A DNA stretch of 58,140 nt, from positions 1 to 58,140 of the forward strand of contig CALJZV010000083.1 of NCBI GenBank assembly GCA_937983475.1, in the 5' to 3' direction. Below are positions 202 to 51,403 of the stretch, piece by piece. This DNA is from an uncultured Verrucomicrobiales bacterium (GTDB taxonomy: Bacteria; Verrucomicrobiota; Verrucomicrobiia; Limisphaerales; JACDHS01). The translations under genes and the position numbers were made by a program. Below the pieces are notes generated by a model. It ran no database searches. It was not told where the DNA came from and saw only the letters and a list, made by a program, of their open reading frames with translations. How positions within the stretch are numbered: position 1 is the stretch's first letter; each line of letters begins with the position of its first letter.

Positions 202-355
202 CAATCTTGTTTGATACTAAATAAGATTTTAGTTCCACTAGAAAGGAGAGCGGATGGAAACACAAAACTAGGTAGAGCGGCGCAGCGCGGTGGCCGCTTA
301 TGTGAGTCAAGCACTGCGCAGGACAAAAGAATTTCGAAAGGAGAATGATAAAGCG

Positions 356-1027
356 ATGAGCAGGTTTTTAGCTTTCGTCTACGCCCCCAAAACAGAAGAG
401 CTGATTGCCAAGTGTGGCGAGAGCACCACTGCAATTGCACTGTGCCGGGAGCACCCCGACTACGTAACAATCACACAGAAAACAATCGGTAAGGAACTTA
501 ACCGAGAACAAATGCTTGCGATCTACAATATGTGTTGCGAGCAGGTTAAGGAATCATTTGACAGCGACGAGCAGGCGGCAACAGAATCATGGGCCGTGTT
601 AGCCGACGCCTTTGCTGCCAACCCCTACACCGATGCCGAGCACGCCGAACTTGTGGCCCGACACTTTCCCAATCAAAAAGGAGACGAGGAAACGATGGCA
701 AAGAAAAAAGCAGCACCGAAAAAGAAAGCAGCCCCCAAGAAAAAGGCGGCAGCAAAAAAGAAAGCCCCGGCCAAGAAGAAGGCCGCAGCTAAAAAGAAAG
801 CCCCGGCCCGCAAGACAGCCGGTAAGCAGAACCGCGTGACGAGCAAGTTCGCTGGCAAAAAGATCCAGCTGCTCAACAAGAAGAACCCTCATAAAGAAGG
901 CACCAAGTCCCACGGGTGGTTCGCACTACTGCGCAACAACATGACGGTGGAGGACTACGTGGCCGCTGGCGGCTTTACGCACTACATCGTTTTCGGCGTG
1001 GAAAAAGGCTTCTTGAAACTCAAGTAA
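356..1027 (+). CDS. Lys/Ala/Pro-repeat (histone H1-like) protein with a conserved C-terminal domain, function unknown
   Basis: ATG 356 follows AAAGGAG; the track ORF 290..1027 starts further upstream at a GTG. Central AKKKAAPKKKAAPKKKAAAKKKAPAKKKAAAKKKAP. C-terminus NPHKEGTKSHGWFALLRNNMTVEDYVAAGGFTHYI is shared with 11802..12449. Confidence 0.6.
   Translation: MSRFLAFVYAPKTEELIAKCGESTTAIALCREHPDYVTITQKTIGKELNREQMLAIYNMCCEQVKESFDSDEQAATESWAVLADAFAANPYTDAEHAELVARHFPNQKGDEETMAKKKAAPKKKAAPKKKAAAKKKAPAKKKAAAKKKAPARKTAGKQNRVTSKFAGKKIQLLNKKNPHKEGTKSHGWFALLRNNMTVEDYVAAGGFTHYIVFGVEKGFLKLK
698..814 (+). repeat. Imperfect in-frame tandem repeat encoding (KKKAAP)-like units
   Basis: Repeated aagaaa..gca/gcc..ccg units are visible in the nucleotide sequence. 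Confidence 0.8.
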
Positions 1028-1123: not shown

Positions 1124-2059
1124 ATGCCCGTCAAGCCCATGCGCAAGGTTCCCCGCGCTATTGACCCCGCCACGCCCGACATGTTCTGGAAGCCAGAAGA
1201 TTTCTTTTGGTATTGGATGAACGAACGACACATGATCTACGTTAAGCGGCACAAGATGAGGCTGCCCAAGCCGTGGACAGACGATAAGATTTTGCAGAGC
1301 TACAAGTTCACGAACGTGTTCCGTGAGCTGGACACAGTCAGCCTCTGGATGCGCGAGCACTGGACCAAGCCCAACTGGAACGCGCCGCTGTGGCAAACGG
1401 TTTTGAACTGCGGCATCTTCCGCTTTTTTGGCACCACAGAATTCGCGGCCCTGCTGGGCTGGCAAAAACGCTTTGAACCCGAACACATGACCGACCTTGC
1501 CTACGCCATGCTCGCAGGCGGGGGACGCGTGTTCACGGGTGCTTACATCATAAGCAACTTTGGCCAGCGGCGGCCCAAGCAAGAGGTGATCGTTGAGGAC
1601 GTGCTTGCCCCGTTTGCCGAGGAGTGCAAAGCGATTGCCAAGGTTGCCCGCAAGACGCGCAGTCTGCAAGCTACCTTTGAAGCCATGAGTCACTTGTATG
1701 GCTTTGGCGGCAATGGGTTCATGGCTTATGAGATTGTCAGTGACTTGCGCCACACCAAGGTCCTGCACGACTGCGAGGACAACCTCACATGGGCCAACGC
1801 TGGCCCCGGCGCAAAGCGCGGCTTGAACCGCATCCACGAGCGACCGCTCAATGCCCCGGTGCGCCCCCAACAGGCTTTGGAGGAGATGCAAGAACTGTGG
1901 CGCGGTGCCATACGTGATGGGAAGGTAGGGCAACACATTGTCAAGCAGGCACGCTTTGAGATGCGTGAGATTGAGCACAGCCTCTGTGAGTTTGATAAAT
2001 ACATGCGCGTCCACAACGACGAAGGCAGACCCCGAGGAAGGTATGACGGAACACCATGA
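1124..2059 (+). CDS. aGPT-Pplase clade 1-like DNA base hypermodification enzyme (alpha-glutamyl/putrescinyl thymine pyrophosphorylase family)
   Basis: AAGGAGG at 1107-1113, then ATG 1124; the track start at 1085 lies in the terminator U-tract. The motif PKPWTDDKILQSYKFTNVFRELDTVSLW matches my recollection of the family signature. Confidence 0.65.
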   Translation: MPVKPMRKVPRAIDPATPDMFWKPEDFFWYWMNERHMIYVKRHKMRLPKPWTDDKILQSYKFTNVFRELDTVSLWMREHWTKPNWNAPLWQTVLNCGIFRFFGTTEFAALLGWQKRFEPEHMTDLAYAMLAGGGRVFTGAYIISNFGQRRPKQEVIVEDVLAPFAEECKAIAKVARKTRSLQATFEAMSHLYGFGGNGFMAYEIVSDLRHTKVLHDCEDNLTWANAGPGAKRGLNRIHERPLNAPVRPQQALEEMQELWRGAIRDGKVGQHIVKQARFEMREIEHSLCEFDKYMRVHNDEGRPRGRYDGTP

Positions 2060-3039
2060 GCAAACCCTACAAGCAGCACCCACCCTACGCAATCCAGATA
2101 GAGCCGGTTGAAGGCTGTAATCTGGCTTGCAGCTTTTGCGGCATCAACGGCATCCGCGAGGGCGACACCAGTAGCAAGCCCTTCAAGATGATGAACGTGG
2201 GCCACGCCGAGCAGCTGGCCGTTGGCCTAGCGGCCACGGGCTGGAATCCACGGGTGGAGTTTGCCATGCACGGCGAACCCACTATGCACCCCCAGCTCCG
2301 CGACATTGTCTGGCTCTTCCGCAAACACAACCCCAAGCTCCAGCTGATGGTGACCACCAATGGGGCCGGTCTGATCAAAGAGCCGGTTGCCCGCGTGGCA
2401 GCCCTGTTTGAAGCCGGGTTGAACGTGCTGGCGATCGATAAATACGAGCACGCGACCTACATAAACAGGGTTCTCACGCCGATTTACGATGCCGCCGCTG
2501 CTGGCAGCCTGCCCATGCCGCTACCGTATCCGGAGAATCCCAAGGGCAACCCGCACACCCGCCGCCCGGTAACGGCCCAAGTGATCAGCGTGGTGGAGGA
2601 CATCAGCGATGCCACCAAGGGCACCCACTCCAGCCTGAACAATCACGCGGGCTGCGCTGCGCCTCCCGACCACAGTCAGCAGGGCAAGCGATGCGCCAAG
2701 CCGTTCAGAGAGCTGAGCGTCCGCTACGACGGCAACGTGGCCGTCTGCTGTAACGACTGGCGCGGCACCTATTACGTGGGCAACGTCATTATCGACACCT
2801 TTGAGGAGGTTTGGTGGAGCGCGGCCATGCACGCGGCGCGCGTTAAGCTATACCACGGCCAGCGTGACTTCGGGCCGTGCGACGGGTGTAATGCAAAGTC
2901 TTACCGGGTAGGCCTGCTGCCCGACAAATACGGCAAGGACGCGCTGCCTGAGCCAGATAAGGAGGACCGTGAGACCATAGAGGAGGCTCTAGGCTATGAG
3001 CCCCTAGCCGCCCCCGTGTTGCGGGAGTGGGAAAAGTAA
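2056..3039 (+). CDS. Radical SAM enzyme with a Cys-rich SPASM-like C-terminal domain
   Basis: CNLACSFCG (CxxxCxxC), GEPTMHP and TTNG motifs. C-terminal VCCNDW...GPCDGCN. ATGA overlap with the upstream gene. Confidence 0.85.
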   Translation: MSKPYKQHPPYAIQIEPVEGCNLACSFCGINGIREGDTSSKPFKMMNVGHAEQLAVGLAATGWNPRVEFAMHGEPTMHPQLRDIVWLFRKHNPKLQLMVTTNGAGLIKEPVARVAALFEAGLNVLAIDKYEHATYINRVLTPIYDAAAAGSLPMPLPYPENPKGNPHTRRPVTAQVISVVEDISDATKGTHSSLNNHAGCAAPPDHSQQGKRCAKPFRELSVRYDGNVAVCCNDWRGTYYVGNVIIDTFEEVWWSAAMHAARVKLYHGQRDFGPCDGCNAKSYRVGLLPDKYGKDALPEPDKEDRETIEEALGYEPLAAPVLREWEK

Positions 3040-3053
3040 GAAAGGAGAAAGCA

Positions 3054-3872
3054 ATGAAACGCGAAAAAATAATCGCAGACTTCAAACAAAAGTGTTTGAT
3101 CTACATCCCCAGCCGGGGACGATGCCTGAACCAAAAGACCTTTGAAAATATACCGCGCTCCCTACGCCCGGTCACGAGGATTGTGATCCCCCCGGAGGAC
3201 GAGCAGCGGATGCCGGAGAAGTATGCCCCTTACTGCCGCGTCTGCCCGGAGGAGGGCATAGGACCGACCCGCCAGTGGATACTGCAGACCCACCATGATG
3301 AGCAGCTGCGCCCCTACCTAATCATGAGCGACGATGACCACTCGTTCTTCCGGCGCAAGTCGGAGGAGGACTGGCATTTGCAACGGTGCAGCGACGAGGA
3401 CGTTGAAGACATGTTCATCGCCCTTGGCGACCTGCTTGAGGAATACATGCAAGTCGGTCTCAGCCCGCGCTCGGGCAACAACCGGATGGAGGCACCCGTC
3501 AAGGAATGCACGAGGATGTTCAACTTCCACGGCTACGACGTTGCTGCCTACCATGCGCTCGGCCTGAGATTTGATGAGACGCCCCTGATGGAGGACTTCA
3601 ACGTCACGTTGCGTATCTTGGAGGCGGGCTATCCCAACGCGCTGCTGACTCAATACTGTTGGGACCAGCCCGGCAGCAACAGTGACGGCGGTTGTAGCAG
3701 CTACCGCACCCCCGAATTGCAGGCCAAGGCCGCTAATTTGTTGGCTGAGCTGCATCCCAAGTTCGTCAAAGTTGTTGACAAGAAGAGCAATAATTGGGAA
3801 GGTATGGACACCCGCAAAGACGTGCGCATCCAATGGCGCAAGGCTTACGAGTCAGGAGTAAAAGAATTATGA
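3054..3872 (+). CDS. GT-A-like glycosyltransferase-fold protein (TET/JBP-associated glycosyltransferase-like), tentative
   Basis: AAAGGAG, then ATG 3054. IYIPSRGR near the N-terminus, a short acidic stretch, then LIMSDDDHSFF (DxD-like), which is the GT-A pattern. No Walker A motif. Confidence 0.45.
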   Translation: MKREKIIADFKQKCLIYIPSRGRCLNQKTFENIPRSLRPVTRIVIPPEDEQRMPEKYAPYCRVCPEEGIGPTRQWILQTHHDEQLRPYLIMSDDDHSFFRRKSEEDWHLQRCSDEDVEDMFIALGDLLEEYMQVGLSPRSGNNRMEAPVKECTRMFNFHGYDVAAYHALGLRFDETPLMEDFNVTLRILEAGYPNALLTQYCWDQPGSNSDGGCSSYRTPELQAKAANLLAELHPKFVKVVDKKSNNWEGMDTRKDVRIQWRKAYESGVKEL

Positions 3873-4969
3873 GCAGGAATATCAATAGCGGAATTCCGCA
3901 CGTTCTTGACGTCCGCAACGTGGACGAGGCTTTTTTCAGAGGCGCGGAGCTACTGCGCGAGCAAGGCGTGCAGCGGCCCAGCCGCGACGGCATGACGTTG
4001 GAGTGCCCGTTCCCCGTCATCACCAGCTACGCAAACCCGTGGGAGTGTGTGCTGGGTTACGACCAGCAACGCAAGCCCAACCCGTTCTTCCACTTCTTTG
4101 AGGCGTTGTGGATGCTTGCCGGGCGCAGAGACGTGGAGATGCTGAAGCACTACAACAGCCAGATGGCTGCCTACAGTGACGACGGCGAAGTGTTCCACGC
4201 CGCCTACGGCTACCGGCTGCGGCACCACTTTGGCATAGACCAGATCAACCACTGCATTGCGAAGTTAAAGAAGAACGCCAATGACCGTCAGGTGGTGATG
4301 CAGATCTGGGATTGCAACAGCGATCTGGATAAGGTCAGCAAGGACATCCCATGTAACGACTTTGTGATGTTCCGGGTAGACGACCCGGCCTGTGGCCGCA
4401 GGCTAAACATGACCGTCTGTTGTCGCAGTAACGACATGATCTGGGGCTGCTACGGCAGCAACGTGGTGCAGTTTGCGTTCCTCCACAAATACATTGCCAC
4501 AATGGCCGGGTTCCGGATGGGTCGTTACAATCAGTTAAGTCATAGCTTTCATGTCTATACTGAACGCCCGCAGTGGGAGGCCATCAAAGGGATTTCCTTT
4601 GAGAACTATCTCAATGACACCTACTACACCGGCGGATTCTGCAATATACCTAAAGAAGCTGCAACGCCATCTCAATTAATGATGACCTATCCCGACGACT
4701 GGTATAATGACCTCCTCACCTTCTTGGACGACCCGCAGTGCTGTGACGTGCGGAACTATTGGTTCCACAAAACTGCCCGGCCCATGTGGCTCGCCTACGA
4801 GTGCCACAAGCAGCGCAACTACGACATCGCGCTCACGCACGCTGGCACCATAGAGGCTGACGATTGGAGACTGGCTTGCACCACATGGCTGCGCCGGGTG
4901 CGAGAAGCCTACGAGGACCGCGAGGCGCGCAAACTGCGAGAGGAAAAGGAGGCACAAGCAACATCATGA
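3869..4969 (+). CDS. Thymidylate-synthase-fold pyrimidine hydroxymethylase, probably dUMP hydroxymethylase
   Basis: ATGA overlap at 3869-3872. NPFFHFFEALWMLAG, DIPCNDF (catalytic Cys) and CRSNDMIWGCYGSNVVQF motifs. About 90 aa of C-terminal extension. Confidence 0.75.
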   Translation: MSRNINSGIPHVLDVRNVDEAFFRGAELLREQGVQRPSRDGMTLECPFPVITSYANPWECVLGYDQQRKPNPFFHFFEALWMLAGRRDVEMLKHYNSQMAAYSDDGEVFHAAYGYRLRHHFGIDQINHCIAKLKKNANDRQVVMQIWDCNSDLDKVSKDIPCNDFVMFRVDDPACGRRLNMTVCCRSNDMIWGCYGSNVVQFAFLHKYIATMAGFRMGRYNQLSHSFHVYTERPQWEAIKGISFENYLNDTYYTGGFCNIPKEAATPSQLMMTYPDDWYNDLLTFLDDPQCCDVRNYWFHKTARPMWLAYECHKQRNYDIALTHAGTIEADDWRLACTTWLRRVREAYEDREARKLREEKEAQATS

Positions 4970-5592
4970 GTCGTAAGGACCTCACCAACCCCCTGCGCGT
5001 TATTGAGGAGGCCCCGCACATCGAGCGGTTCCATACGTTCCCCACCATTGGCAAGCAGAACATCGCGAGCCACAGCTGGGGCGTGGCCTTGCTGACGCAC
5101 ACCATCTACGAGGGCGAGCCGCCAGTGGAGGCGATCATGTATGCGCTTTGTCATGACATACATGAAATCGAAGTTGGCGACGTGCCTGCCCCCACCAAAT
5201 GGAAGCACCCCGCGCTCAAGGAGCAACTGAACAAAGCCACCGATGAGTTCGAGCGCATCCACAACATCCAAGTTCCGGAGGACGAGGAGGTGCTGTGCGT
5301 TGTGGATATAGCGGACAAACTCGAAGGCATGTTAAACTGTATCCGCGAAATTAAGCTCGGCAACATGCACATGATCCTCGTCTACACGCGCTGGCGGCGC
5401 GCTGTAACCAACAAGGAGACCCGCAAACTCTACAACTCTAAAGTCTGCACCGCCATCCGATTGAAAACCAATGGGCTGATCAACGAGATCCAAGACCAGT
5501 TCGTCCGCGCCACATGGGACTATCCCCATTACAAACAACTGATTGAAGCCCAAGTGAAAAGCGATGGGCCATCCCTAAAGGAGACTGAATAA
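4966..5592 (+). CDS. HD-domain phosphohydrolase, YfbR-like 5'-deoxynucleotidase
   Basis: ATGA overlap at 4966-4969. SHSWGVALL...LCHDIHEIEVGDVPAPTKW parallels the YfbR H..HD..E..GD.P.P.K motif. Confidence 0.7.
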   Translation: MSRKDLTNPLRVIEEAPHIERFHTFPTIGKQNIASHSWGVALLTHTIYEGEPPVEAIMYALCHDIHEIEVGDVPAPTKWKHPALKEQLNKATDEFERIHNIQVPEDEEVLCVVDIADKLEGMLNCIREIKLGNMHMILVYTRWRRAVTNKETRKLYNSKVCTAIRLKTNGLINEIQDQFVRATWDYPHYKQLIEAQVKSDGPSLKETE

Positions 5593-5594
5593 TT

Positions 5595-6233
5595 ATGGAA
5601 CCGACAGACAAACCAACAGCACTCCAGCAGTTCTACGTTCTACTGGCCCGCGTGGCTGGTGAGGACGTAGAGGAGCTGCTTAAAAAGAACGAGGAGTATG
5701 GCGACAGCTGGAAGAAGCGCGGGGGCATTGGTGCCTTCATGATGTTGGCGCGCAAATGGGATCGCATTGAAAACATGACGCAAGCCGAGCGTTATGACGT
5801 CTTCGAAGCCATCCTAAAAAGCGATGCCGTCACAGGCGTTGTGGATGACATCGGTGATTTGCGCCGCTACCTGCTGCTCGTTGAAACGGAGTGCCGCCTG
5901 CGCCGCTACCAGCAAACCGGAGCCAACAACGCCCCGCTCGCCCCCGGCACCCCGCAACCCACCAGCGGCCCGGTAGCCCTGTTTGAGCAGGAACAGGAAG
6001 CTGAGGTTCCCACTCCGCTGCCGCCCGAGCATATAACGGCTGACGACGAGCTGACGCGCATGGTGCGCACCATCCTTGTCCAAGTGTATGGCAACAAGCA
6101 GCGCGCGCAGACGGAGGCGGCCACGTCCGCTCTGATCCGGCTGTTCAACGAGCGCATCACGGCCATGGGCGAAGCCTTGGCTAAGAACGTTGAGGAACAT
6201 ATTGGCGAGTGCGACCACTCGCCCAACCCATAA
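5595..6233 (+). CDS. DUF1599/MazG-like all-alpha nucleotide pyrophosphohydrolase-fold protein, tentative
   Basis: EEYGDSWKKRGGIGAFMMLARKWDRIENM ... VVDDIGDLRRYLLLVE. The C-terminal half is low complexity. Confidence 0.45.
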   Translation: MEPTDKPTALQQFYVLLARVAGEDVEELLKKNEEYGDSWKKRGGIGAFMMLARKWDRIENMTQAERYDVFEAILKSDAVTGVVDDIGDLRRYLLLVETECRLRRYQQTGANNAPLAPGTPQPTSGPVALFEQEQEAEVPTPLPPEHITADDELTRMVRTILVQVYGNKQRAQTEAATSALIRLFNERITAMGEALAKNVEEHIGECDHSPNP

Positions 6234-6247
6234 AAGGATCTCGCGCA

Positions 6248-8245
6248 GTGCAACTACCACTCTTCCCTCCCGAGATGAAGACCGACTGGACGCCGCCCGG
6301 CCACTTGCCCGACTTGGCCGATGCTAAGATGATAGGCCTAGACGTTGAGACGTGCGACCCCAACCTCCGCACCAAGGGGCCGGGCGGCGTGCGTAAGGAT
6401 GGCCACCTTGCCGGGGTCAGCATAGCCACAGACGACGGATTTAAGGCTTATCTACCCATAAGGCACGGCATGGGGCCGAACATGGCGGCCAGACCCGTCC
6501 TCGCGTGGCTCAGGCGGCAGCTGGGGCGGCGCAATCAGCCCAAGGTGGGAGCCAATCTGCTCTACGACCTTGAGTGGTTGGCCGTGAATGATGTGCCGGT
6601 GGAGGGGCCGTTTTGGGACGTGCAAGTTGCCGAGCCACTGCTGGATGAGAATCTGCACAGCTACAGCTTGGAGTCTATCAGTCGTAAGCACTTGGGCCGG
6701 GGCAAGGAGGAGCAGCTGCTTGAGGAGGCCGCCCTTACTTACCTCGGCCCCAAGGGCGACACTAAAGGTGACCTCTGGAAGTTGCCCGCCAAATACGTTG
6801 GCCCCTACGCGGAGGCCGATGCCGTGCTGCCCCTGCTGATCTTTGAGAAGCAACGGAAGAAGCTGGAGGAGCAGGGGCTAATGGAGGTCTTCAACTTGGA
6901 GACCCGCCTGATTCCCCTGCTGCTTGCCATGCGCCTGCGCGGCGTGCGCGTAGATGTGAATCGCGCCGAGGAGTTGGTTGACCATTTAACGGCCAAGGCC
7001 GCTAATCTACACAAGGAATTGAAGTCCTTGGCCGGGCGTGAGATCGGCGTGTGGGCCAATGATGATCTTGCTTACGCTTTCGATCAGGTGGGCGTCAGCT
7101 ACCCGCGCACCCCCAAAACAGGGAAGGGCCAGTTTCAAAAGACTTGGCTCCAAAACCACCCCGCGCCCATTGCCAAGTTGGTAGTGGATATTCGCGAGTG
7201 CGAAAAGATGCGCGATACGTTTGCCGTCAATCAAATCCTCAACAGCCACGTAGATGGCCGCGTCTATACGCAGTTCCATGCGCTGCGGAGTGACCAGTAT
7301 GGCACCGTCAGCGGAAGATTCAGCAGCAGCAACCCCAACCTGCAACAAGTGCCCAGCCGGGGCGCGTTTGCCAAGATGGTGCGCGGGCTGTTTGTGCCGG
7401 AGGAGGGTCAGCAGTGGTGGTCAGCCGACTTTAGCCAAATTGAGTTCCGGCTGATTGTCCATTATGCTGCGCTGCTGGAACTACGCGGTAGCGATGCAGC
7501 CTGCGCCATGTATAGCAGCGACCCCAAAACGGATTTCCATACCATGGTCGCCACGCTTACCGGGTTAGACCGCAAGCCCGCCAAGAACATCAACTTCGGG
7601 CTGGCCTACAACATGGGCAAGAAGAAGCTGGCCGCCAGCCTTGGCGTTGACCTTGGCACAGCCGAGGGGATGTTCATGCAGTATCATGGCAAGGTGCCTT
7701 TTGTAAAGCTGCTGAACGAGAAGTGCGTGAGCCAAGCTAATCGTCAGGGCTACGTGCGCACACTGGCAGGCCGCCGCCGTAGATTTACGCAGTGGGAAGT
7801 CAACTTCAATCACCCCGAGTATGACCGTTACAAATACGATGCCCCCATGGAATACGGGCAAGCCTTGGAACGCTACAGCGACCGCCGATTTGTGCGCCGC
7901 GCCAAGACCCACAAGGCGATGAACAGTGTTGTGCAAGGCACCGCCGCCGACCTGATGAAATACGCCATGGCCGAGGTCTGGGAGAGCGGTGTGTGTGACG
8001 TCCTCGGCGTGCCCACGCTAACCGTTCACGACGAGCTGGACGGATCTATTGAGCCCACCCCACAACACACCGAGGCCTTGATTGAGTTGGTGCAAACCAT
8101 GATCCACGCCGTTCCCCTAAAGGTGCCCGTGATGGTGGACTGTGAAATTGGCCCCAATTGGGGCGACGTAAGCGAACCCAGCGAAAACGCCCCATGGATG
8201 CGAGGACTAAAGGATGGATGCACTACCAAATTTCAACAAGAGTAA
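6248..8245 (+). CDS. Family A DNA polymerase with a 3'-5' exonuclease domain
   Basis: Exo motifs DVETCD, NLLYDLEWL and YAEADA. Pol motifs SADFSQIEFRL, RKPAKNINFGLAYNMG and TVHDEL. Start is GTG 6248 or ATG 6275; the track start at 6209 overlaps the upstream gene. Confidence 0.9.
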   Translation: MQLPLFPPEMKTDWTPPGHLPDLADAKMIGLDVETCDPNLRTKGPGGVRKDGHLAGVSIATDDGFKAYLPIRHGMGPNMAARPVLAWLRRQLGRRNQPKVGANLLYDLEWLAVNDVPVEGPFWDVQVAEPLLDENLHSYSLESISRKHLGRGKEEQLLEEAALTYLGPKGDTKGDLWKLPAKYVGPYAEADAVLPLLIFEKQRKKLEEQGLMEVFNLETRLIPLLLAMRLRGVRVDVNRAEELVDHLTAKAANLHKELKSLAGREIGVWANDDLAYAFDQVGVSYPRTPKTGKGQFQKTWLQNHPAPIAKLVVDIRECEKMRDTFAVNQILNSHVDGRVYTQFHALRSDQYGTVSGRFSSSNPNLQQVPSRGAFAKMVRGLFVPEEGQQWWSADFSQIEFRLIVHYAALLELRGSDAACAMYSSDPKTDFHTMVATLTGLDRKPAKNINFGLAYNMGKKKLAASLGVDLGTAEGMFMQYHGKVPFVKLLNEKCVSQANRQGYVRTLAGRRRRFTQWEVNFNHPEYDRYKYDAPMEYGQALERYSDRRFVRRAKTHKAMNSVVQGTAADLMKYAMAEVWESGVCDVLGVPTLTVHDELDGSIEPTPQHTEALIELVQTMIHAVPLKVPVMVDCEIGPNWGDVSEPSENAPWMRGLKDGCTTKFQQE

Positions 8246-8693
8246 GCGTGACCCCAAAGAGGAGATCAACGAAAAGCGATTGCGTGAGTGGCTGATGCGC
8301 CTGCATGGCGTCCACTGGCAGCCGGTGGAAACCTACACCAGCCAAGGCGTTCCGGATCTGAATTATCGGACGCTCAATCACGAAGGATGGATAGAACTGA
8401 AAACCATACGCCGCCCAGCGCGCGCCAGCACGTTGGTCAACATAGAACTGCGCTCCAGTCAGGTGGCGTGGATAAGCAAACGTCAACAGGCTGGCGGCAC
8501 GGTTTGGGTGTTGCTGGCGATTGGCTACCACACGCTCGTTCTGCTTACGGGCCACGCAGCTCTAGAACTGCAAATGAACCCCCAGCCCTACAAAGGGCTT
8601 TTAGATTATGCGAGCTGGTATTGTGAGCTTCGCCCATGGCCGCGAGAAACTCTACTTGCGCCTTTAGATAAAGGCTACGGCGACGACGGCTAA
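8214..8693 (+). CDS. VRR-NUC / PD-(D/E)xK nuclease
   Basis: GVPDLNYRTLNHEGWIELK (D...ExK), then SSQVAWI. Confidence 0.6.
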   Translation: MDALPNFNKSKRDPKEEINEKRLREWLMRLHGVHWQPVETYTSQGVPDLNYRTLNHEGWIELKTIRRPARASTLVNIELRSSQVAWISKRQQAGGTVWVLLAIGYHTLVLLTGHAALELQMNPQPYKGLLDYASWYCELRPWPRETLLAPLDKGYGDDG

Positions 8694-8800
8694 AAATATT
8701 TTTGAAAAGTCTAAAATAAATCTTGCGCTAGTCTTTTTCTCTGCTATACTCGTTTCACAATCAAGGGGCGTCAATCCCCAAAAGAAAGCGAGAAAGAAAA
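8694..8800 (+). promoter_or_regulatory. Early promoter/leader cassette copy 1
   Basis: AAAAGTCTAAAATAAATC, TTGCGC at 8723-8728, TATACT at 8745-8750, CGTTTCACAATCAAGGGG, hairpin GGGGcgtcaatCCCC, GAAAGCGAGAAAG at 8784-8796, ATG 8801. Confidence 0.7.
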
Positions 8801-9298
8801 ATGACAGCCAACCTCTTCAAAGACAAGACCCACTACTTCACCATCAGCCCCCGGAAGCACGTCATCTTCGAAATGGGCCTCTGTGAAAACTGCGAGTGTG
8901 AAGTTCAGGAGCCCAACGCCGTCACGATGCTTGAGCCCGAGTCCAAGGTCAAGCGCATGAAGCTGGAGAAGGTCGACCAACTGCCCGACGAGCTGGGCTA
9001 CAGCGAAGAGTTCGGCGGGGCCGTTTGCTGCGACTGCTACAACAAGATCGAAAACGAGAAGAAGGAAGAGGCCCGCAAGAAACTCCAGACCATGAACAAA
9101 GTCAACCGCACCATCGGTGACATCGTGGATTTCGTGAACGACGCCTACCCCACCCACAACCGCGAAGCCCGGATGTTCTACGTCCTCAAGGCGGTGCAGC
9201 CCATAGTGGAAGGCTTGGGCGGCGAGGAGCAAGGCGTGACCGAGGATGTGCTTGAGGCCAGCGTCCGCGATCACTTCAACTGGAAGGGGGTAAAATAA
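8801..9298 (+). CDS. Hypothetical early protein with CxxC...CxxC (possible zinc ribbon)
   Basis: ORF sits directly behind cassette 1. Contains CENCEC and CCDC. Confidence 0.6.
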   Translation: MTANLFKDKTHYFTISPRKHVIFEMGLCENCECEVQEPNAVTMLEPESKVKRMKLEKVDQLPDELGYSEEFGGAVCCDCYNKIENEKKEEARKKLQTMNKVNRTIGDIVDFVNDAYPTHNREARMFYVLKAVQPIVEGLGGEEQGVTEDVLEASVRDHFNWKGVK

Positions 9299-11801: not shown

Positions 11802-12449
11802 ATGAGAACCCCAATCCACCCCTACTGCCCGCAGCTTACCCTCGAGGAAAACCTGATAGACGGCCCCGCCGTCTTGGATCCCGAGCGCAACCAACCCCTG
11901 ATGGAAACCAACATGCTTCAGGACTTGCTGACCCACAGCCCGTCCGATGCCATCCAGCTCCTGCCCGGCCTACACCTTGCGCTGTTTGAAGCCCCCGTGC
12001 CTGCCGGTGCCGACCTTACCCTGCTCGAGCAGAAGATCCTCTACGCCCTCCAGCTGCGGGGCCGCGCCCGCTGCGGCGAGCCTGTGAGCCCTGTTCTCCA
12101 GAGCCGATACAACAGGGCTATGCAAATGCTGCCTGCCACGCAGACCGCTCAGCTCCTCATCGCCGCCAAGCAGGCCAACCAAGCAGTGCGGCAGGGCAAA
12201 GATCGCTTCGGCGAGGCCGACACCAGCGGCGCGCCCCGGCAGAAGCGCGTTGGTGGTGGCTACGCTGGCAAAATGCTGCGGATGACGGGCAAGCCCAACC
12301 CGCACCGGGAGGGCACGAAGTCGCACGGGTGGTTCCAGCTGCTACGCGACGGCATGACGGTTGAGGAGTATCTTACGGCGGGCGGGTTCACCCACTATAT
12401 CAAGTTCGCCATCGAACACGCTCTGATCAAACTTGAGGAGGTTAAATAG
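11802..12449 (+). CDS. Hypothetical protein sharing the C-terminal domain of the 356..1027 product
   Basis: NPHREGTKSHGWFQLLRDGMTVEEYLTAGGFTHYIKF aligns with the C-terminus of gene 356..1027. Confidence 0.6.
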   Translation: MRTPIHPYCPQLTLEENLIDGPAVLDPERNQPLMETNMLQDLLTHSPSDAIQLLPGLHLALFEAPVPAGADLTLLEQKILYALQLRGRARCGEPVSPVLQSRYNRAMQMLPATQTAQLLIAAKQANQAVRQGKDRFGEADTSGAPRQKRVGGGYAGKMLRMTGKPNPHREGTKSHGWFQLLRDGMTVEEYLTAGGFTHYIKFAIEHALIKLEEVK

Positions 12450-42705: not shown

Positions 42706-43363
42706 CTTACCGCTACACCCTGAAAAAGTCCACTGTATGTTATTGACGAGCGTGCGTCACTTGGGTCAAGAGTATGCGCGCGGCACAGTGATGGAATATA
42801 TTGGCCCCGGTCAGTACGTGGAGAGTGACGTAGTGCTGCGACAGCCGCTTGGAGGCACCCTGTCCATTAGCCGAGAAAGGGTGGCTTTTGTGACAGTGCA
42901 GCTTCGAGACGACAAGGCTAAGACGGAGGAATTTGCCGCCGCTTTTGGTTTGCGCAAGATTGAGAATCCCCACATGGCTGAACTTGAGCGGGTGTTGGGC
43001 TTGCGTTTTCCCGAGCATTTGTGTGAGCTGATCCGCTACCATGTGGACCGCCCACCGGGGCAAGTCCAGTGGCATGATTTTCATACTCGCACTTGGGCGT
43101 GGAGGATTAATGGGGTGTGGAGCACGCCGCTGGACTTGTTGCCGCCCCATGTGCGGAGCAAGGCCTGCGCTGAGGACAGCAAAGCGTGGGAAACCTTCCG
43201 CGAGTCTTGGTTTGCTATCCCCAACGACCGCGAGACGGTCAACAGCGTGTTGGACCATATTTGGCCCCCGGCCCAGCCGGAAGAGAACCCCCAGCTTGCC
43301 AAGTTGGAGGAATTAACCCAAAACCTGATTGAAGTTGTGAAGGAAATAAAATGTCGATCCTAA
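42692..43363 (+). CDS. Hypothetical protein, weak SMI1/KNR4 (SUKH)-like resemblance
   Basis: GAGGAGGA RBS, then ATG 42692. Contains ELERVLGLRFPEHLCELI. Confidence 0.4.
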   Translation: MTKPNLPLHPEKVHCMLLTSVRHLGQEYARGTVMEYIGPGQYVESDVVLRQPLGGTLSISRERVAFVTVQLRDDKAKTEEFAAAFGLRKIENPHMAELERVLGLRFPEHLCELIRYHVDRPPGQVQWHDFHTRTWAWRINGVWSTPLDLLPPHVRSKACAEDSKAWETFRESWFAIPNDRETVNSVLDHIWPPAQPEENPQLAKLEELTQNLIEVVKEIKCRS

Positions 43364-44400
43364 GATTAGGTGAGCTTTTTTGTGGCCCCGGTGGGCTGGG
43401 TTTGGGGGCAGCTATGGCTTCAGACGCGGTGCGCCATGTTTGGGCTACAGACTATGACGCTGATAGTTGTGCCACCTACGGGCTTAATTTGGCAGACGAT
43501 TGGGACAACGTGCTCTGTTGTGATGTGCGGACTTTACGTTGGAGCACGTTAGGCCGAATATCCGCAGTGGATATCTTAACCTTTGGTTTCCCATGCAATG
43601 ACTTCAGCGTTGTGGGCGAGCAGCGTGGGCTGTCTGGTAAATACGGGCCACTTTATGTCTACTGTGCGCGGGCGTTGGAGTATTTCAAGCCATCGTTTTT
43701 TGTTGCCGAAAATGTAGGTGGCCTGCGCTCTGCCGATGGCGGCAGGGCCTTTGAGGCTGTGCTAGGTAGATTCCGCAAAGCTGGATATAGCCTCTATCCA
43801 CACTTATACGATTTCAGCAAATACGGGGTGCCTCAGGCGCGTAAACGGATTGTGATTGTAGGTGTGCGCAGGGATATTGCTCTAGTGTATAGGGTTCCAT
43901 GCCCTAGTTTATATTCGCACATCGATGTTTCCTGCCGCACAGCGTTAGAGTGCCCGCCTATCCCTGAGCTTGCGGCGAATCAAGAGCCCACTAAACAAAG
44001 CCCCGCAGTTATTGAGCGGCTTAGGCACATCAAGCCGGGACAAAACGCTTTCAATGCCGATTTGCCGGAACACTTGAAGTTGAACGTGAAGGGCGCAACT
44101 ATAAGCCAGATCTACAGGCGACTTGATCCCGACAAACCCGCCTACACCATAACCGGCAGCGGAGGCGGTGGAACGCATGTTTACCATTGGGCTGATCCAC
44201 GAGCCTTGACCAATCGGGAGCGGGCGCGCCTGCAAAGTTTTCCGGATTATTATGAGTTCTGTGGCAGGCGTGGCAGTGTTCGTAAACAGATCGGCATGGC
44301 AGTTCCTCCGGTGGGCGCAAAAGCTATTTTTAAGGCCTTATTCAGTTGCGTCAACGGTGTGGAGTATCCTTGGATAGAACAGAATATTAAAGGAGATTGA
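43351..44400 (+). CDS. dcm: DNA (cytosine-5)-methyltransferase
   Basis: Motifs ELFCGPGGLGLG (I), FGFPCNDFS (IV), ENV (VI), QARKR (VIII), TNRERARLQSFPDYYEF (IX) and GMAVPP (X). Confidence 0.9.
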   Translation: MSILRLGELFCGPGGLGLGAAMASDAVRHVWATDYDADSCATYGLNLADDWDNVLCCDVRTLRWSTLGRISAVDILTFGFPCNDFSVVGEQRGLSGKYGPLYVYCARALEYFKPSFFVAENVGGLRSADGGRAFEAVLGRFRKAGYSLYPHLYDFSKYGVPQARKRIVIVGVRRDIALVYRVPCPSLYSHIDVSCRTALECPPIPELAANQEPTKQSPAVIERLRHIKPGQNAFNADLPEHLKLNVKGATISQIYRRLDPDKPAYTITGSGGGGTHVYHWADPRALTNRERARLQSFPDYYEFCGRRGSVRKQIGMAVPPVGAKAIFKALFSCVNGVEYPWIEQNIKGD

Positions 44401-44402
44401 AA

Positions 44403-44756
44403 ATGGAGCGTAAAGCCCGCAAACAACTGGCACACAAGTTGCGCGTGCTGGCCGATGTGAACCAGACGGGCACCCGTGAGGACGTGTCTATCCACTTGGC
44501 CGCCAACTTTACAACCGAAGACCTGCGGCAAGCTGCCGACTGCTGTGAGCCGCCCGATCCGCAACAGGCAGAGGCGGCACTGGAAGAAATAGCGGGAATG
44601 GAAGGAATGACTTTGCTAGGTGCCGATTCAAATTCCCCCGGTGTGACTGGCGCGCCGCGAATGCACGAGATAGGCTCGCATAAAGCGTTCAATCAATGCG
44701 CACAAATAGCGCGGGAAGCCCTAAGCCGGATGCGTGGATTGGAGGCTGGGAAGTGA
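44403..44756 (+). CDS. Hypothetical protein
   Basis: AAGGAG RBS, then ATG 44403. Confidence 0.5.
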   Translation: MERKARKQLAHKLRVLADVNQTGTREDVSIHLAANFTTEDLRQAADCCEPPDPQQAEAALEEIAGMEGMTLLGADSNSPGVTGAPRMHEIGSHKAFNQCAQIAREALSRMRGLEAGK

Positions 44757-45013
44757 AAATCGACATCCCCAAAAAGAAATGGTGTCAGGCCGGATTCTTC
44801 AAGAATGGTGACCTGATGTTTGATGAATCCGACAATCTCTATCTCGGGGTAGCCGATCACATCAACACGGCATATTGGCAAAACCGCTCAACTGTTCCTG
44901 TTGTGGCTTTGCCTCAAGGCTATCTGATGGAGATCCCAAGCATCACCAGAATGAGGCACGCGCACTTGAAGCTGGTTGAAGACCGACAGGCGGAACTGGA
45001 GGCGCGAGGATGA
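44753..45013 (+). CDS. Hypothetical protein
   Basis: GGAGG, then GTG 44753, overlapping the upstream stop. Confidence 0.45.
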   Translation: MKIDIPKKKWCQAGFFKNGDLMFDESDNLYLGVADHINTAYWQNRSTVPVVALPQGYLMEIPSITRMRHAHLKLVEDRQAELEARG

Positions 45014-45759
45014 AGCTCAGCAAACGGAAAAAGCAGATTCGCTACGCTCGCCAACGGGAGCGTGACAAGCGGCCCTGTGTAATGTGCGGCGAGCTGACCA
45101 ACGGCCATTGGGTGCCGCCCTGCTTGGGAGAGCCGGGGTTCTTTATTTGTGAGCGCAAGACCAAGGAAGATGTGAAAAAGGCTGGTGGAAAAATGAGCGA
45201 CAAACTAACAGGGTGGCTCCCTGAGGAAAAGATCGATGATGAGATGCACGAGGCCTACTGTGTTCTTGCAGGCAGGCGGTTGGAGCGGCTGCCCAAGGAC
45301 GAGGTCTTCGCCCTCTACCAGTATTTGCACGCCAACCCCGCGCCCACGGCCGAGGGGTTCTTCAGGTTTGTGCAGCGCAACCGCAGCCCCGCGCAAAAGG
45401 ACTTTAAGCCGTGGCCGCCCTGCGACCGTGAGACGCACCCCGACTACCAGTCGGGCGGGTGGGACAACATGGAGGGCATCCTTGTGTCGCTGCCCGCCTA
45501 CGCTTACGGGCGCGCGTGCGTCAACGCCTTTGCCGGGCGTAGCCCTGACGAGTGTGAGGTGGTTGAGGACGCCGTGATGGCGGAAGTGTCGAAGGTCTAC
45601 ATGCACGTCAGCGACGGACGCTTCAGCAACCCGCGCACGCGGGCAGAACACGTGATCAGCTGTCACGATGAGCTGGTCATGGATGAGCGCGATAAAATTG
45701 AGGCCGAAAAACTTGAGCAAGACCTAAAGGAGAAAATTAAAAATGATCCCAACAATTGA
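45010..45759 (+). CDS. Hypothetical protein with an N-terminal Cys cluster
   Basis: ATGA overlap. Contains CVMCG...PPC...IC. Confidence 0.5.
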   Translation: MKLSKRKKQIRYARQRERDKRPCVMCGELTNGHWVPPCLGEPGFFICERKTKEDVKKAGGKMSDKLTGWLPEEKIDDEMHEAYCVLAGRRLERLPKDEVFALYQYLHANPAPTAEGFFRFVQRNRSPAQKDFKPWPPCDRETHPDYQSGGWDNMEGILVSLPAYAYGRACVNAFAGRSPDECEVVEDAVMAEVSKVYMHVSDGRFSNPRTRAEHVISCHDELVMDERDKIEAEKLEQDLKEKIKNDPNN

Positions 45760-46093
45760 GGAGCTAATGGCCTTCCTTAAACAAGACACCCGCGTCCGCT
45801 CTGCCGAGTTGGTCGTAAACGTGGCGCGGCTTGAAGCTGGGGCCGAATATGTGATATGGATCTACGTAAATTCTTACGGCATAGATACCGATGACATGAG
45901 CACGCTAGACAAGATAGAAATCAAGTCTGATACTTGGACTGCGCTGTGTGTGCTGGTAGGCGACCACCCGCTGTTCAGCAGCAACTACGCTGCGCGAGCC
46001 CATGACGCGATATGGAGCGGTGATCTGCCGTCTGTGTCAGCTTACGGCAAGCTCGGCACCTATGCGGCGCACAAAAGGGAGGAAAACGGATAA
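45743..46093 (+). CDS. Hypothetical protein
   Basis: AAGGAG RBS 10 nt upstream of the start. Confidence 0.5.
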   Translation: MIPTIEELMAFLKQDTRVRSAELVVNVARLEAGAEYVIWIYVNSYGIDTDDMSTLDKIEIKSDTWTALCVLVGDHPLFSSNYAARAHDAIWSGDLPSVSAYGKLGTYAAHKREENG

Positions 46094-46095
46094 TC

Positions 46096-47052
46096 ATGGA
46101 AGTCCTGTCATCAGCAAATCACATCTGCTACGTCCCGCGCCGCTTTGGCAAGCGCACCGCGTTGATGGTGGTGCAAGCCAACGAGATCATCGCGCAATAT
46201 GATCAGCAAGGCTACAAGCTGACGCTGCGGCAGCTTTACTACCAGTTCGTCGCGCGCGGCCTGCTGTCCAACACCCCGCTGAGCTACAAACGGCTGGGCG
46301 AGGTGATCAGTCAGGCCCGGCTGGCCGGGCTAATAAGCTGGCACGCCATAGAGGACCGCACACGTAACCTCCAACGCCTGCCCAGCTGGGAGGGGCCGAG
46401 CGACATCGTTACCAGCTGCGCCAGTCAGTATATGGTAAACACATGGGACTATCAGCCGCGCTACGTGGAGGTCTGGGTGGAGAAGGAAGCCCTCGCCAGC
46501 GTAGTTGCCCGCGCCGCTGACCGCTGGCGTGTGCCGTGGTTCTGCTGCCGGGGTTACGTGAGTCAGAGTGAGATGTGGGCGGCGGCCCAGCGGCTTGCGT
46601 TTAAGAGCCGGGGCGGCGAGCGGCCTGTGGACATCTTACACCTTGGCGACCACGACCCCAGCGGCATCGACATGACGCGTGACATTTTCGACCGCCTAAC
46701 CCTGTTTCAAGTCCAGGATTTAGAAGTGGAACGGCTCGCGCTAAACAGGGATCAGATCAGGAAGTATAACCCGCCCCCAAACCCGGCTAAAATAACCGAC
46801 AGCCGCGCCAACGCCTACATTGATGAGCATGGCGTGAACAGCTGGGAACTTGATGCGCTGGAACCCAACGTGCTGACCACGCTAATCGATAAAGCGATTG
46901 AAAAGCGCGTGGACGGCACTGCATGGAACCGCCGCATCAGCCGCGAGAACCGCGAGCGCGCTCAGCTGAACAACGTGGCGAAGAACTGGTCTATTGTGAC
47001 CAAGGCCATCAAGGCTTATAAGAAGAAAGGAAAAGGCCGTGGAACCCGATAA
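46096..47052 (+). CDS. Stand-alone Spo11 / topoisomerase VI subunit A-like protein (5Y-CAP + Toprim; Topo mini-A-like)
   Basis: TLRQLYYQFVARGL (winged helix with a Tyr pair), VEVWVEKEAL (Toprim Glu) and HLGDHDPSGIDM (DxD). Confidence 0.55.
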   Translation: MEVLSSANHICYVPRRFGKRTALMVVQANEIIAQYDQQGYKLTLRQLYYQFVARGLLSNTPLSYKRLGEVISQARLAGLISWHAIEDRTRNLQRLPSWEGPSDIVTSCASQYMVNTWDYQPRYVEVWVEKEALASVVARAADRWRVPWFCCRGYVSQSEMWAAAQRLAFKSRGGERPVDILHLGDHDPSGIDMTRDIFDRLTLFQVQDLEVERLALNRDQIRKYNPPPNPAKITDSRANAYIDEHGVNSWELDALEPNVLTTLIDKAIEKRVDGTAWNRRISRENRERAQLNNVAKNWSIVTKAIKAYKKKGKGRGTR

Positions 47053-47515
47053 CTCAGAACCGTTTGGCTGGCCCGCTGCCCCCATTAGAATGAATCCGGT
47101 TGTGTATGCCAAGGCTCCCCGGCCCAGCTTTAACCGGGGGCCGGGGCTGCGGTGGCTGCACAACCACCGGCTGGAGGATCCGACGCCCGCGCCCGGCAAC
47201 AGCTGGAAGGTCTACGACCCCGGTGAGCTGGAAGACCTGATCATGAGCCGCTGGGACCTCTACGGCGTGCAGCCTGAGCAACTCTATATTGGCGAGCCGG
47301 TGGCCATCAATACCAGCTACCCCTACCCGTGGCTAGTGGAGCGGCGTTACGTGGGCGTCTATAAGCAGATTATGCCTGAGCAGATGGAGGAGGAGCAGCT
47401 GCACTTTTCAGGCTCCATCATTGTGCAGTGCCTCAGCGGGGTGCCGCGCTACTGGCAGACCAAGCCGCAAGCCAACATAAGAGGAGGCTCGCAATGGGAA
47501 TTCTGGACGCAATAG
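47039..47515 (+). CDS. Hypothetical protein
   Basis: GTG start after AAAGGAAAAGG. Confidence 0.4.
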   Translation: MEPDNSEPFGWPAAPIRMNPVVYAKAPRPSFNRGPGLRWLHNHRLEDPTPAPGNSWKVYDPGELEDLIMSRWDLYGVQPEQLYIGEPVAINTSYPYPWLVERRYVGVYKQIMPEQMEEEQLHFSGSIIVQCLSGVPRYWQTKPQANIRGGSQWEFWTQ

Positions 47516-47826
47516 AAGACCGCTGGCGCATCCCCCTCGATCAGCTGCCTTACGGGCGCGAGTGGCCTTTCCGCTACGGCGCGCAATGGTATTATCGCGT
47601 CAACATGCGGCACGCCGTAGGCGGCAGCGATGGCAAGGGCAGCGTGCGCACGTATAAAGAAGCGTGGCTCCCCGATGATCCTACGTTTGGCTCACCCGTG
47701 CTGCTGACGCAACTGGACTTTGACAGGGTGCTTGCCCTCAGTGATGAGCGCGGCGTCTATGTTGGCCCGATAAACTTTGTTTTGTTCAAAGTGTTCAATT
47801 ATACTATAGGAAAGGTGGATTGGTAG
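47494..47826 (+). CDS. Hypothetical protein
   Basis: GAGGAGG RBS, then ATG 47494. Confidence 0.5.
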   Translation: MGILDAIEDRWRIPLDQLPYGREWPFRYGAQWYYRVNMRHAVGGSDGKGSVRTYKEAWLPDDPTFGSPVLLTQLDFDRVLALSDERGVYVGPINFVLFKVFNYTIGKVDW

Positions 47827-47827
47827 A

Positions 47828-48580: not shown

Positions 48581-48922
48581 GTGTTTGCTGAAGACCCCAT
48601 AGAACGCCTTGAGGAGTTGGAACTTAAATTGTTCCCCCTTACCGAGAAGCGCGTATGCCAGACCGGTCAGACGGAGATGCTTGTTGTGTATCCCGACGGC
48701 GACCGGCTGGCCCGTGGGGTCATGGTGCTGAGGATGCCGCATTGTGTGCTCACGTTCTACCGCAAGAGTAAGCTGCGCGCCTTGGTGGTGGATCATGCCC
48801 GTGAAATCAGCCCGCCCGTTGAGGACCAGACTGGCCCTTACGTGCTAATCAATTGGAATGACTACCAACACGCCCGCGCCGACTTGATTAATTGGGGCAT
48901 GATTGAGCCAAAGGAGTTCTGA
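48581..48922 (+). CDS. Hypothetical protein
   Basis: GTG start directly after the upstream stop. Confidence 0.4.
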   Translation: MFAEDPIERLEELELKLFPLTEKRVCQTGQTEMLVVYPDGDRLARGVMVLRMPHCVLTFYRKSKLRALVVDHAREISPPVEDQTGPYVLINWNDYQHARADLINWGMIEPKEF

Positions 48923-48925
48923 CCC

Positions 48926-50916: not shown

Positions 50917-50946
50917 GCATCCAAACAAGGAAGGAGGTGACGCCCC

Positions 50947-51393: not shown

Positions 51394-51403
51394 GAGGCCC
51401 CTA

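Follow-up and report, generated by a model that had tools for sequence, protein, structure and literature searches.

The contig CALJZV010000083.1 (assembly GCA_937983475.1), obtained from an uncultured Verrucomicrobiales bacterium and referred to here as the window, was analysed over its whole length of 58,140 nucleotides and carries a phage genome with an operon at positions 1124 to 6233 that is predicted to hypermodify thymine in the phage DNA. The listing of open reading frames (ORFs) shows six genes on the + strand that follow each other head to tail with hardly any intergenic space. Start and stop codons overlap as ATGA precisely at positions 2056, 3869, and 4966, ribosome-binding sites of the type AAAGGAG(G) are found ahead of the starts at 1124, 3054, 4966, and 5595, and a gene for a family-A DNA polymerase (PolA) lies directly downstream. 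This layout had been described in an initial annotation made from the DNA letters alone, and both the ORF listing and Pfam searches bear it out. The genes and the matches of their products are the following:

1124..2059 (+), PF18723 protein (family HMUDK_hel, formerly aGPT-Pplase1); Pfam 3.1e-46
2056..3039 (+), BtrN-like Twitch radical S-adenosylmethionine (SAM) enzyme; Pfam Radical_SAM 7e-8 and SPASM 6e-10
3054..3872 (+), TAGT-family GT-A glycosyltransferase with a DDD (DxD) motif; Pfam PF20691 9.7e-17, phrog_842 4e-46
3869..4969 (+), ThyA-fold predicted dUMP hydroxymethylase; Pfam Thymidylat_synt 2.2e-22, phrog_5131 1.4e-103
4966..5592 (+), YfbR-like HD-domain 5'-deoxynucleotidase; Pfam PF12917 1.2e-16, also HD_3 and HD
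5595..6233 (+), small helical protein similar to Pam3 gp54; tblastn to Pam3_54 1e-24, without Pfam match
6209..8245 (+), family-A DNA polymerase with a 3'-5' exonuclease domain; Pfam DNA_pol_A 6e-65, DNA_pol_A_exo1 1e-6

The gene identities proposed in the initial annotation, among them an aGPT-Pplase1-type protein at 1124..2059 and a GT-A-like protein, agree with these matches except in the case of the sixth gene, for which a DUF1599/MazG identity had been suggested and for which neither the protein itself nor any of 23 aligned relatives gave a Pfam match to these families.

The second gene product belongs to the Radical SAM superfamily: PF04055 was matched with 33.2 bits (cut-off 29.5) and the motif CX3CX2C, formed by C21, C25, and C28, is invariant in 48 aligned sequences. 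In the C-terminal domain, the same alignment reveals only five invariant cysteines, C213, C231, C232, C275, and C278. A full SPASM domain has seven conserved cysteines and two auxiliary 4Fe-4S clusters. Although the SPASM profile PF13186 was matched with 39.7 bits, the cysteine pattern is of the Twitch type, and membership in the SPASM subfamily was rejected for the window enzyme with its five invariant C-terminal cysteines. The SPASM-like cysteine cluster of the initial annotation is therefore reflected in a profile match but was described imprecisely, as the pattern is that of a single four-cysteine auxiliary site of the BtrN/Twitch type. An NCBIfam model for twitch radical-SAM proteins was also matched (4e-10). 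When all sequences of the PDB were searched with a profile, BtrN was found at 7.6e-20 and the next family at 9e-6; the alignment with BtrN extends over core and Twitch domain alike, and C213, C231, C275, and C278 coincide with the four cysteines of its auxiliary cluster, which we take to be C169, C188, C232, and C235. When an AlphaFold model of the enzyme (AF2, pLDDT 91.5) was compared with solved structures using Foldseek, BtrN ranked first (E 2.5e-15, TM score 0.82 normalised to BtrN), followed by AbmM, SpeY, and DesII and then by peptide-modifying enzymes, so that each of the four best-ranked structures belongs to an enzyme acting on sugars or cyclitols. Judged by sequence and predicted fold, the enzyme is BtrN-like with a Twitch domain, which is predicted to hold a single auxiliary 4Fe-4S cluster. 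Its His197 aligns with residue 152 of BtrN, presumably the proposed base of that enzyme. In radical-SAM epimerases an extra cysteine serves as hydrogen donor, and by analogy the invariant Cys232, located beside an auxiliary ligand, would fit such a role, making epimerisation a possible reaction. In the homolog P0254, an intein with an HNH endonuclease is inserted exactly between C231 and C232 (window numbering), a placement that is a sign of a functionally central site.

The product of the third gene matches PF20691 with 62 bits (cut-off 27.5), and the family motifs, an invariant DDD, an E-D pair, and GGC, are conserved. The TAGT family includes the trypanosome glucosyltransferase of base J, which acts on 5-hydroxymethyluracil (5hmU) in DNA (cited in the preprint of Pyle et al.). 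The window TAGT is accordingly predicted, from its family, to glycosylate 5hmU in DNA.

Relatives of the radical-SAM enzyme were found neither among 50,697 phage records searched by tblastn nor among 185,579 GTDB species-representative genomes scanned for its pattern. The family is nonetheless large in metagenomic data: more than 1,300 clusters formed at 90% identity were matched, and clustering at 50% identity left 162 representatives with E<=1e-30, a number that rises to 687 when the limit is relaxed to E<=1e-10. Members lie on phage-sized contigs, and the G+C content ranged from 39 to 62% among nine loci checked. Gene contents were compared in 49 IMG/VR loci with a homolog of the radical-SAM gene. 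A TAGT gene is present in 45 of them, and in 42 it is the immediate neighbour on the same strand; ThyA-like genes were detected in 44, PF18723 in 40, and PolA in 39, and none of the 49 loci contains the kinase, ADDT, pyridoxal phosphate (PLP) enzyme, isomerase-type radical-SAM enzyme, or Nmad5 of other hypermodification clusters. The order of the two genes varies by lineage, the radical-SAM gene preceding the TAGT gene in the window and in locus L016 and following it elsewhere. In two cases, P0271 (TAGT 7e-19) and P0243 (TAGT 8e-8), both enzymes form a single chain. The TAGT parts of these proteins are 40% and 24% identical to the window TAGT, respectively, and from this difference the two fusions look independent; the P0271 gene stands in a context of PF18723, ThyA, HD, and PolA genes as in the window. 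The adjacency and the natural fusions together show a tight coupling of TAGT and radical-SAM enzyme and argue for a single pathway. A TAGT and a ThyA-like gene without a radical-SAM gene are found in PhiJL001 and MW202897, and the radical-SAM enzyme therefore looks like an added tailoring step.

Some of the variant loci carry further genes. In locus L060 (969-3098), the radical-SAM part of P0277 is fused to an N-terminal domain of 390 residues and its gene lies directly upstream of HNH, ThyA-like, HD, and PolA genes; the N-terminal domain gave no PDB sequence match, no separate TAGT gene was called at this locus, and the domain might be a different glycosyltransferase. On the 97-kb viral contig L048 (6236-7153 and 9280-9933), the genes flanking a TAGT-radical-SAM pair encode a class-I SAM methyltransferase and a DUF2284 metal-binding protein, which may be extra tailoring enzymes. 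Genes for sugar-nucleotide enzymes or aminotransferases were not found near the radical-SAM gene in the variant loci, where only replication genes, the one SAM methyltransferase, and the one DUF2284 gene were seen.

Two other roles of the radical-SAM enzyme have to be weighed against these data. It might act on the base, oxidising 5hmU to 5-formyluracil in DNA or in a nucleotide by a reaction of the anSME/BtrN type, or forming a C-C bond at C5, while the TAGT would serve other sites. The PDB matches include BtrN and anSME, two radical-SAM dehydrogenases, and there are loci that would suit such a role: L025 has the radical-SAM gene and no TAGT gene within 8 kb upstream, and in L053 (IMGVR_UViG_3300025647_000066, 4007-4969 and 7995-8945) a divergent homolog (35% identical), encoded just after the terminase genes, is separated by some 3 kb from an ORF of the Tet_JBP type (34.5 bits, just under the cut-off of 34.9), with no recognisable TAGT or ThyA gene near it. 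The L053 arrangement also means that the family may serve dioxygenase-based pathways. However, a formyl group would take away the very hydroxyl needed by the TAGT, the nearest structural relatives work on sugars or cyclitols, and the direct adjacency in 42 of 49 loci and the two independent fusion architectures point to a joint function with the TAGT; we consider an action on the base unlikely. In the second case, the enzyme would be a viperin-like protein (pVip) or another auxiliary factor outside DNA modification, and the module would make plain glucosyl-5hmU or only 5hmU. The viperin-type matches, PADLOC pVip with 2e-6 and 25 bits over residues 18-119 and an NCBIfam viperin model with 23 bits, and the 'annotated viperins' reported near clusters of glycosyltransferase and ThyS genes by Pyle et al. 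might be taken in this sense. Yet these matches cover only the generic radical-SAM core and the NCBIfam score is far below its cut-off of 180 bits, BtrN is better than the next PDB family by 14 orders of magnitude, and the TAGT fusions and strict synteny place the enzyme in the same pathway as the TAGT. A viperin identity was rejected on the basis of the matches, and the wider alternative is in our judgement highly improbable. Conversely, generic matches of this type may explain the 'annotated viperins' of the preprint.

The remaining genes are consistent with a supply of 5hmU before replication, as had been proposed in the initial annotation. In an alignment with MilA and ThyA, the ThyA homolog of the window has Asp at the position of L143, Cys146, Asp169, and Asn177 (E. 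coli numbering). Asn177 points to uracil as the substrate, an acidic residue at 143 indicates hydroxymethylation and not methylation, and Asp169 excludes the 5-hydroxy-dCMP synthases (PMC13326640), so that the enzyme is predicted to be uracil-specific and of the hydroxymethylase type and not to be a 5-hydroxy-dCMP synthase. The corresponding DCRDN signature is found in 37 of 40 collected phage homologs, including those of the M6-like phage Bhz59 and of Pam3. A cytosine-directed pathway leading to 5-hydroxymethylcytosine or 5-hydroxycytosine was ruled out by Asn177 and Asp169 and by the lack of a TET/JBP gene. Taking the Pfam and NCBIfam name 'thymidylate synthase' literally, the fourth gene would encode an ordinary ThyA, the cluster would serve nucleotide metabolism, and the TAGT would have a target other than DNA. 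The Asp at L143, which is as in hydroxymethylases, argues against this, as do the scores of the NCBIfam ThyA equivalog models, all far below cut-off, and the orthologous genes of M6-like phages, which feed a pathway that starts from 5-hydroxymethyldeoxyuridine (5hmdU) (PMC8989533); this explanation has very little probability.

The HD-domain protein encoded by the fifth gene matches an NCBIfam 5'-deoxynucleotidase model with 4e-10, below its cut-off, and is syntenic with the HD proteins Pam3 gp53 and PaMx11 gp52; it would deplete the competing pool of dTMP and other dNMPs. About 100 residues at the N-terminus of the sixth protein are homologous to Pam3 gp54 ('nucleotide modification') and the conserved motif YGDSWKKRGG...DLRRYL is present; its C-terminal half is of low complexity and unique. 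No Pfam family was found for this protein at E<=0.1 and no PDB relative, and four of its distant counterparts, those of M6-like phages and of PhiJL001, match DUF3310. The window PolA, which presumably incorporates 5hmdUTP, is 35% identical to Pam3 PolA. The order PF18723, ThyA-like, HD, small protein, and PolA is common to Pam3, Bhz59, PaMx11, and PhiJL001, and in M6-like phages it is through this core that 5hmdU enters the DNA (PMC8989533).

Enzymes of the kinase-dependent pathways were looked for in the complete genome. Neither tblastn with Pam3 proteins nor small hidden Markov models (HMMs) run against all six-frame ORFs gave a match for a kinase, ADDT, a PLP enzyme, an isomerase-type radical-SAM enzyme, or Nmad5. 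For the P-loop 5hmdU DNA kinase (5-HMUDK, PF18748), a three-sequence HMM gave a best E of 2.3 on the six-frame ORFs; for ADDT, also known as aGPT-Pplase2 (PF18724), the best HMM match was a capsid-region ORF with E 0.026 and 9 bits, and there was no tblastn or Pfam match. Pfam scans of 31 other early genes and of 36 genes of the structural region showed no family relevant to kinase, ADDT, PLP enzyme, or Nmad5, and genes for sugar-nucleotide synthesis, deamination, or TET-type oxidation were not seen in the Pfam-scanned genome. The lack of a kinase and of a PLP enzyme, noted in the initial annotation, thus extends to the whole genome. A GxxxxGK[ST] motif, which the same annotation had located in TerL and SNF2, does not occur there in strict form: [AG]x4GK[ST] is present in no real ORF, and TerL and SNF2 have deviant GKT/GKS motifs only. 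Measured against the kinase-dependent pathway of thymidine hypermodification (Lee et al. 2018/2021), the genome possesses a putative ThyA-like supply gene and neither a recognisable kinase nor ADDT.

The lack of a kinase had appeared anomalous in the initial annotation, as aGPT-Pplase1 was regarded as the hallmark transferase of thymidine hypermodification and as dependent on the kinase. Under the present Pfam naming, aGPT-Pplase1 is PF18723 and aGPT-Pplase2 is PF18724 (ADDT). The product of the first gene matches PF18723 over its full length (158.4 bits, cut-off 25, profile positions 5-277 of 281), and the same profile matches Pam3 gp50, labelled 'aGPT-Pplase1' by its authors, PhiJL001 gp19, and RSL1 ORF231. 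In SP10 gp186 a kinase is fused to a PF18723-type domain, fitting the name 'kinase helical domain' (PMC5889632). In the reconstituted pathways of M6, ViI, and PaMx11, however, phosphorylated 5hmU is the substrate of clade 2 (ADDT), and the PF18723 protein of M6, gp55, was dispensable in the in vitro reconstitution (PMC8989533); in a 2026 study, the pathway is still given as 5-HMUDK and Pplase2 only (PMC13458397). Moreover, PF18723 stands beside a ThyA-like gene without a kinase in PhiJL001, in RSL1, and in 40 of the 49 IMG/VR loci. Neither the role of a kinase-dependent hallmark enzyme nor the anomaly can therefore be upheld, and on the evidence of gene content PF18723 does not mark the kinase pathway but forms part of a conserved 5hmU core. 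The missing kinase is no paradox because PF18723 accompanies the ThyA-like gene with or without a kinase, because the kinase-dependent transferase is clade 2, and because O-glycosylation of 5hmU needs no kinase.

The PF18723 protein is all-helical in its AF2 model (pLDDT 91), for which Foldseek returned as sole PDB match the HhH-GPD Ogg-type glycosylase MjOgg, a weak one (E 0.096, prob 0.96). Cys288-Glu289-x2-Lys292 is invariant in the family, and the motif [IV]-E/Q-H-S-L-C resembles V-E243-T-I-L-C247 of PaMx11 gp46, in which Cys247 was proposed to attack C6 and Glu243 holds a metal at O4 (PMC11472151). A relationship in sequence or structure of PF18723 to the ADDT of known structure was rejected: a PDB profile search with PF18723 gave no match, Foldseek only the weak Ogg match, and a profile-profile alignment of clade 1 with clade 2 (hhalign, three ADDT sequences) was not significant, with a probability of 1.8%, leaving the short motif resemblance. 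The invariant residues and the presence of PF18723 in most of the radical-SAM loci would be accounted for if the protein carried out a kinase-independent group transfer, its cysteine attacking C6, expelling a glycoside, possibly one oxidised by the radical-SAM enzyme, or water, and installing another nucleophile. Against such a transfer stand the insignificant clade 1/clade 2 alignment, the absence of any donor-related gene, and the fact that PF18723 is equally conserved in M6-like phages, the final bases of which are fully explained without this protein; we regard it as quite unlikely.

We favour, at a little better than even odds, a two-stage hypermodification module in which 5hmU replaces thymine, the TAGT adds a sugar, and the radical-SAM enzyme tailors the product. 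In the first, pre-replicative stage, as suggested by homology, the ThyA-like enzyme would convert dUMP to 5-hydroxymethyl-dUMP, the HD nucleotidase and the gp54-like small protein would bias the nucleotide pool, and the PolA of this lytic phage would build DNA with 5hmU in place of thymine, as in M6-like phages. In the second, post-replicative stage, the TAGT would transfer a sugar from a host nucleoside diphosphate (NDP)-sugar to the 5-CH2OH group, a step that would need no kinase and would follow the chemistry of base J, whose glucosyltransferase JGT is of the TAGT family. The radical-SAM enzyme would then abstract a hydrogen from a carbon of the sugar and, by analogy with its closest relatives, either oxidise a secondary alcohol to a ketone or epimerise it, with Cys232 as the hydrogen donor in the latter case; its substrate could be the DNA-bound sugar or the NDP-sugar donor. 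For the individual parts, the genome probably replaces thymine by 5hmU and attaches a sugar, and an action of the radical-SAM enzyme on this sugar falls just short of an even chance. The end product would most likely be a sugar-tailored glycosyl-5hmU, and the glycosylated thymine derivative that had been one suggestion of the initial annotation is supported. A bolder proposal, possible though doubtful, is that the BtrN-like protein represents the first case of a radical-SAM enzyme editing a DNA-attached glycan, in complex with or fused to the TAGT, and converts glucosyl-5hmU (base J) to a keto, epimerised, or rearranged sugar, with PF18723 perhaps adding a kinase-independent step.

Several observations weigh against the two-stage scheme. 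The radical-SAM enzyme is only 16-19% identical to BtrN, so its substrate is not transferable by homology, and we infer not only the reaction and its substrate but also the sugar and the acceptor. The enzyme also occurs in loci with a radical-SAM gene only (L025 and L051-L053), so that its link to a TAGT is not a strict one. The window holds no gene for NDP-sugar biosynthesis and no aminotransferase gene, and a keto-sugar would therefore have no obvious follow-up step. Finally, the invariant Cys-Glu pair of PF18723 is like the catalytic pair of ADDT, and the protein may catalyse a step outside the scheme.

With respect to the genome as a whole, an ENA contig of 57,889 nt contains the same genes in permuted order and the ends of the window, 1-109 and 58032-58140, overlap with about 87% identity, from which it follows that the window is a whole, circularly permuted genome. 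A gene for a UvrD-type helicase crosses the window junction and is for this reason absent from the ORF list. Other early genes encode a C5 cytosine methyltransferase, an SNF2 helicase, an exonuclease, an AEP primase, proteins similar to Pam3 gp33 and gp34, and an SprT-like protein. The matches of early proteins encoded at 44000-56700 (+) to Pam3_Gp34 (5.5e-49) and to DUF7307, the family of proteins like Pam3 gp33 (8.7e-25; both Pfam), tie the replication region to the lineage of cyanophage Pam3. The C5 cytosine DNA methyltransferase, encoded at 43351-44400 (+), matches Pfam DNA_methylase (1.8e-64) and has the motifs FCGPGG, FPCNDFS, and ENV; since the genome has no TET/JBP dioxygenase partner, it is probably a means of plain 5-methylcytosine protection, apart from the thymine module. 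Just upstream of the operon, the gene at 290-1027 (+) encodes a Lys/Ala-rich (KKKAAP)n protein that matches, over its last 69 residues, the C-terminal end of the product of 11802-12449 (+) with 58% identity (BLASTP 2e-29); the domain duplicated in these two proteins is possibly DNA-binding.

The closest known systems with respect to gene order are the clusters of M6-like phages, PaMx11, and Pam3, which share with the window the core of PF18723, ThyA-like, HD, small protein, and PolA genes and a related replication module. These clusters consist, beyond the core, of 5-HMUDK and ADDT, with or without a PLP enzyme, a radical-SAM isomerase, a FAD enzyme, or an acetyltransferase, and in phages such as M6 the 5hmU is phosphorylated by 5-HMUDK and the phosphate is then displaced by an amine via ADDT. 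The window lacks 5-HMUDK, ADDT, the PLP decarboxylase, the photolyase-like radical-SAM isomerase, and Nmad5, and in their place carries a TAGT and an unrelated BtrN-like radical-SAM enzyme. All characterised pathways derived from 5hmU use, to our knowledge, a DNA kinase and an amine transferase, and the only radical-SAM enzyme known to us in thymidine hypermodification is the M6 isomerase.

In other phages, the gene content approaches that of the window more closely. PhiJL001, Caudoviricetes sp. ctUhy936 (MW202897), and Ralstonia phage RSL1 possess, like the window, a TAGT, a ThyA-like, and an HD gene and no kinase. PF18723 is present in PhiJL001 and RSL1 and was not seen in the examined part of MW202897; all three are without the radical-SAM gene, and PhiJL001 carries Nmad5 instead. 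In RSL1 (L005, 163104-171498), three TAGT paralogs, a sulfotransferase, an APS kinase, and two nucleotidyltransferases are encoded beside PF18723 and the ThyA-like gene, a set that could point to 5hmU DNA decorated with a sulfated oligosaccharide. Literature searches found no paper that describes the DNA chemistry of these three phages.

Base J, made by JBP and JGT, and the glycosylation of phage DNA, by the beta-alpha-glucosyltransferase of T-even phages or by the glycosyltransferases associated with 5mYOX or ThyS (Pyle et al.), resemble the window in that a TAGT or other GT-A enzyme stands beside an enzyme that makes a 5-hydroxymethylpyrimidine, and in the O-glycosylation, predicted for the window, of a hydroxymethyl group in DNA without prior phosphorylation. 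Unlike in base J, the 5hmU of the window would be made before replication by a ThyA homolog and not by a dioxygenase, and unlike in the described systems of DNA glycosylation, the glycosyltransferase has a radical-SAM partner, sometimes fused to it, as a feature of the window family. We know of no characterised DNA glycosylation system that uses anything other than glycosyltransferases and ordinary sugar-nucleotide enzymes. In full-text searches, no publication emerged that connects a radical-SAM enzyme with a DNA glycosyltransferase or with glycosylated 5hmU, the word 'radical' is absent from the preprint of Pyle et al., and the statement of the initial annotation that the gene set matches no described pathway was borne out by these searches.

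Among Twitch radical-SAM enzymes, the window enzyme shares with BtrN, the 2-deoxy-scyllo-inosamine dehydrogenase of butirosin biosynthesis, and with SpeY, AbmM, and DesII the CX3CX2C core, a single auxiliary 4Fe-4S site, and the spacing C-x17-C ... C-x2-C. The NeoN-type epimerases also belong to the sugar- and cyclitol-modifying enzymes of this type. The window enzyme differs from BtrN in being phage-encoded within a DNA-modification operon, in the extra invariant cysteine by the auxiliary ligand, in a C-terminal extension of 40 residues, and presumably in its substrate, a DNA sugar or an NDP-sugar and not an aminocyclitol.

Hypermodifications determine whether phage DNA resists restriction and CRISPR systems, make sequencing more difficult, and provide enzymes that can be used to label DNA. 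The prediction drawn from the module is concrete and testable: the phage DNA should contain a new nucleoside, and the radical-SAM enzyme may act on a DNA-linked sugar; if a glycan in DNA is edited as proposed, a large group of uncultured phages has a previously unknown DNA base. The general scheme, the replacement of a pyrimidine by means of a ThyA homolog followed by post-replicative decoration, is known, and it is the variant with TAGT and radical-SAM enzyme that is new. Next to the kinase-dependent clusters and the described DNA glycosylation systems, the window operon would represent a third design, in which a supply of 5hmU is combined with a TAGT and a radical-SAM partner.

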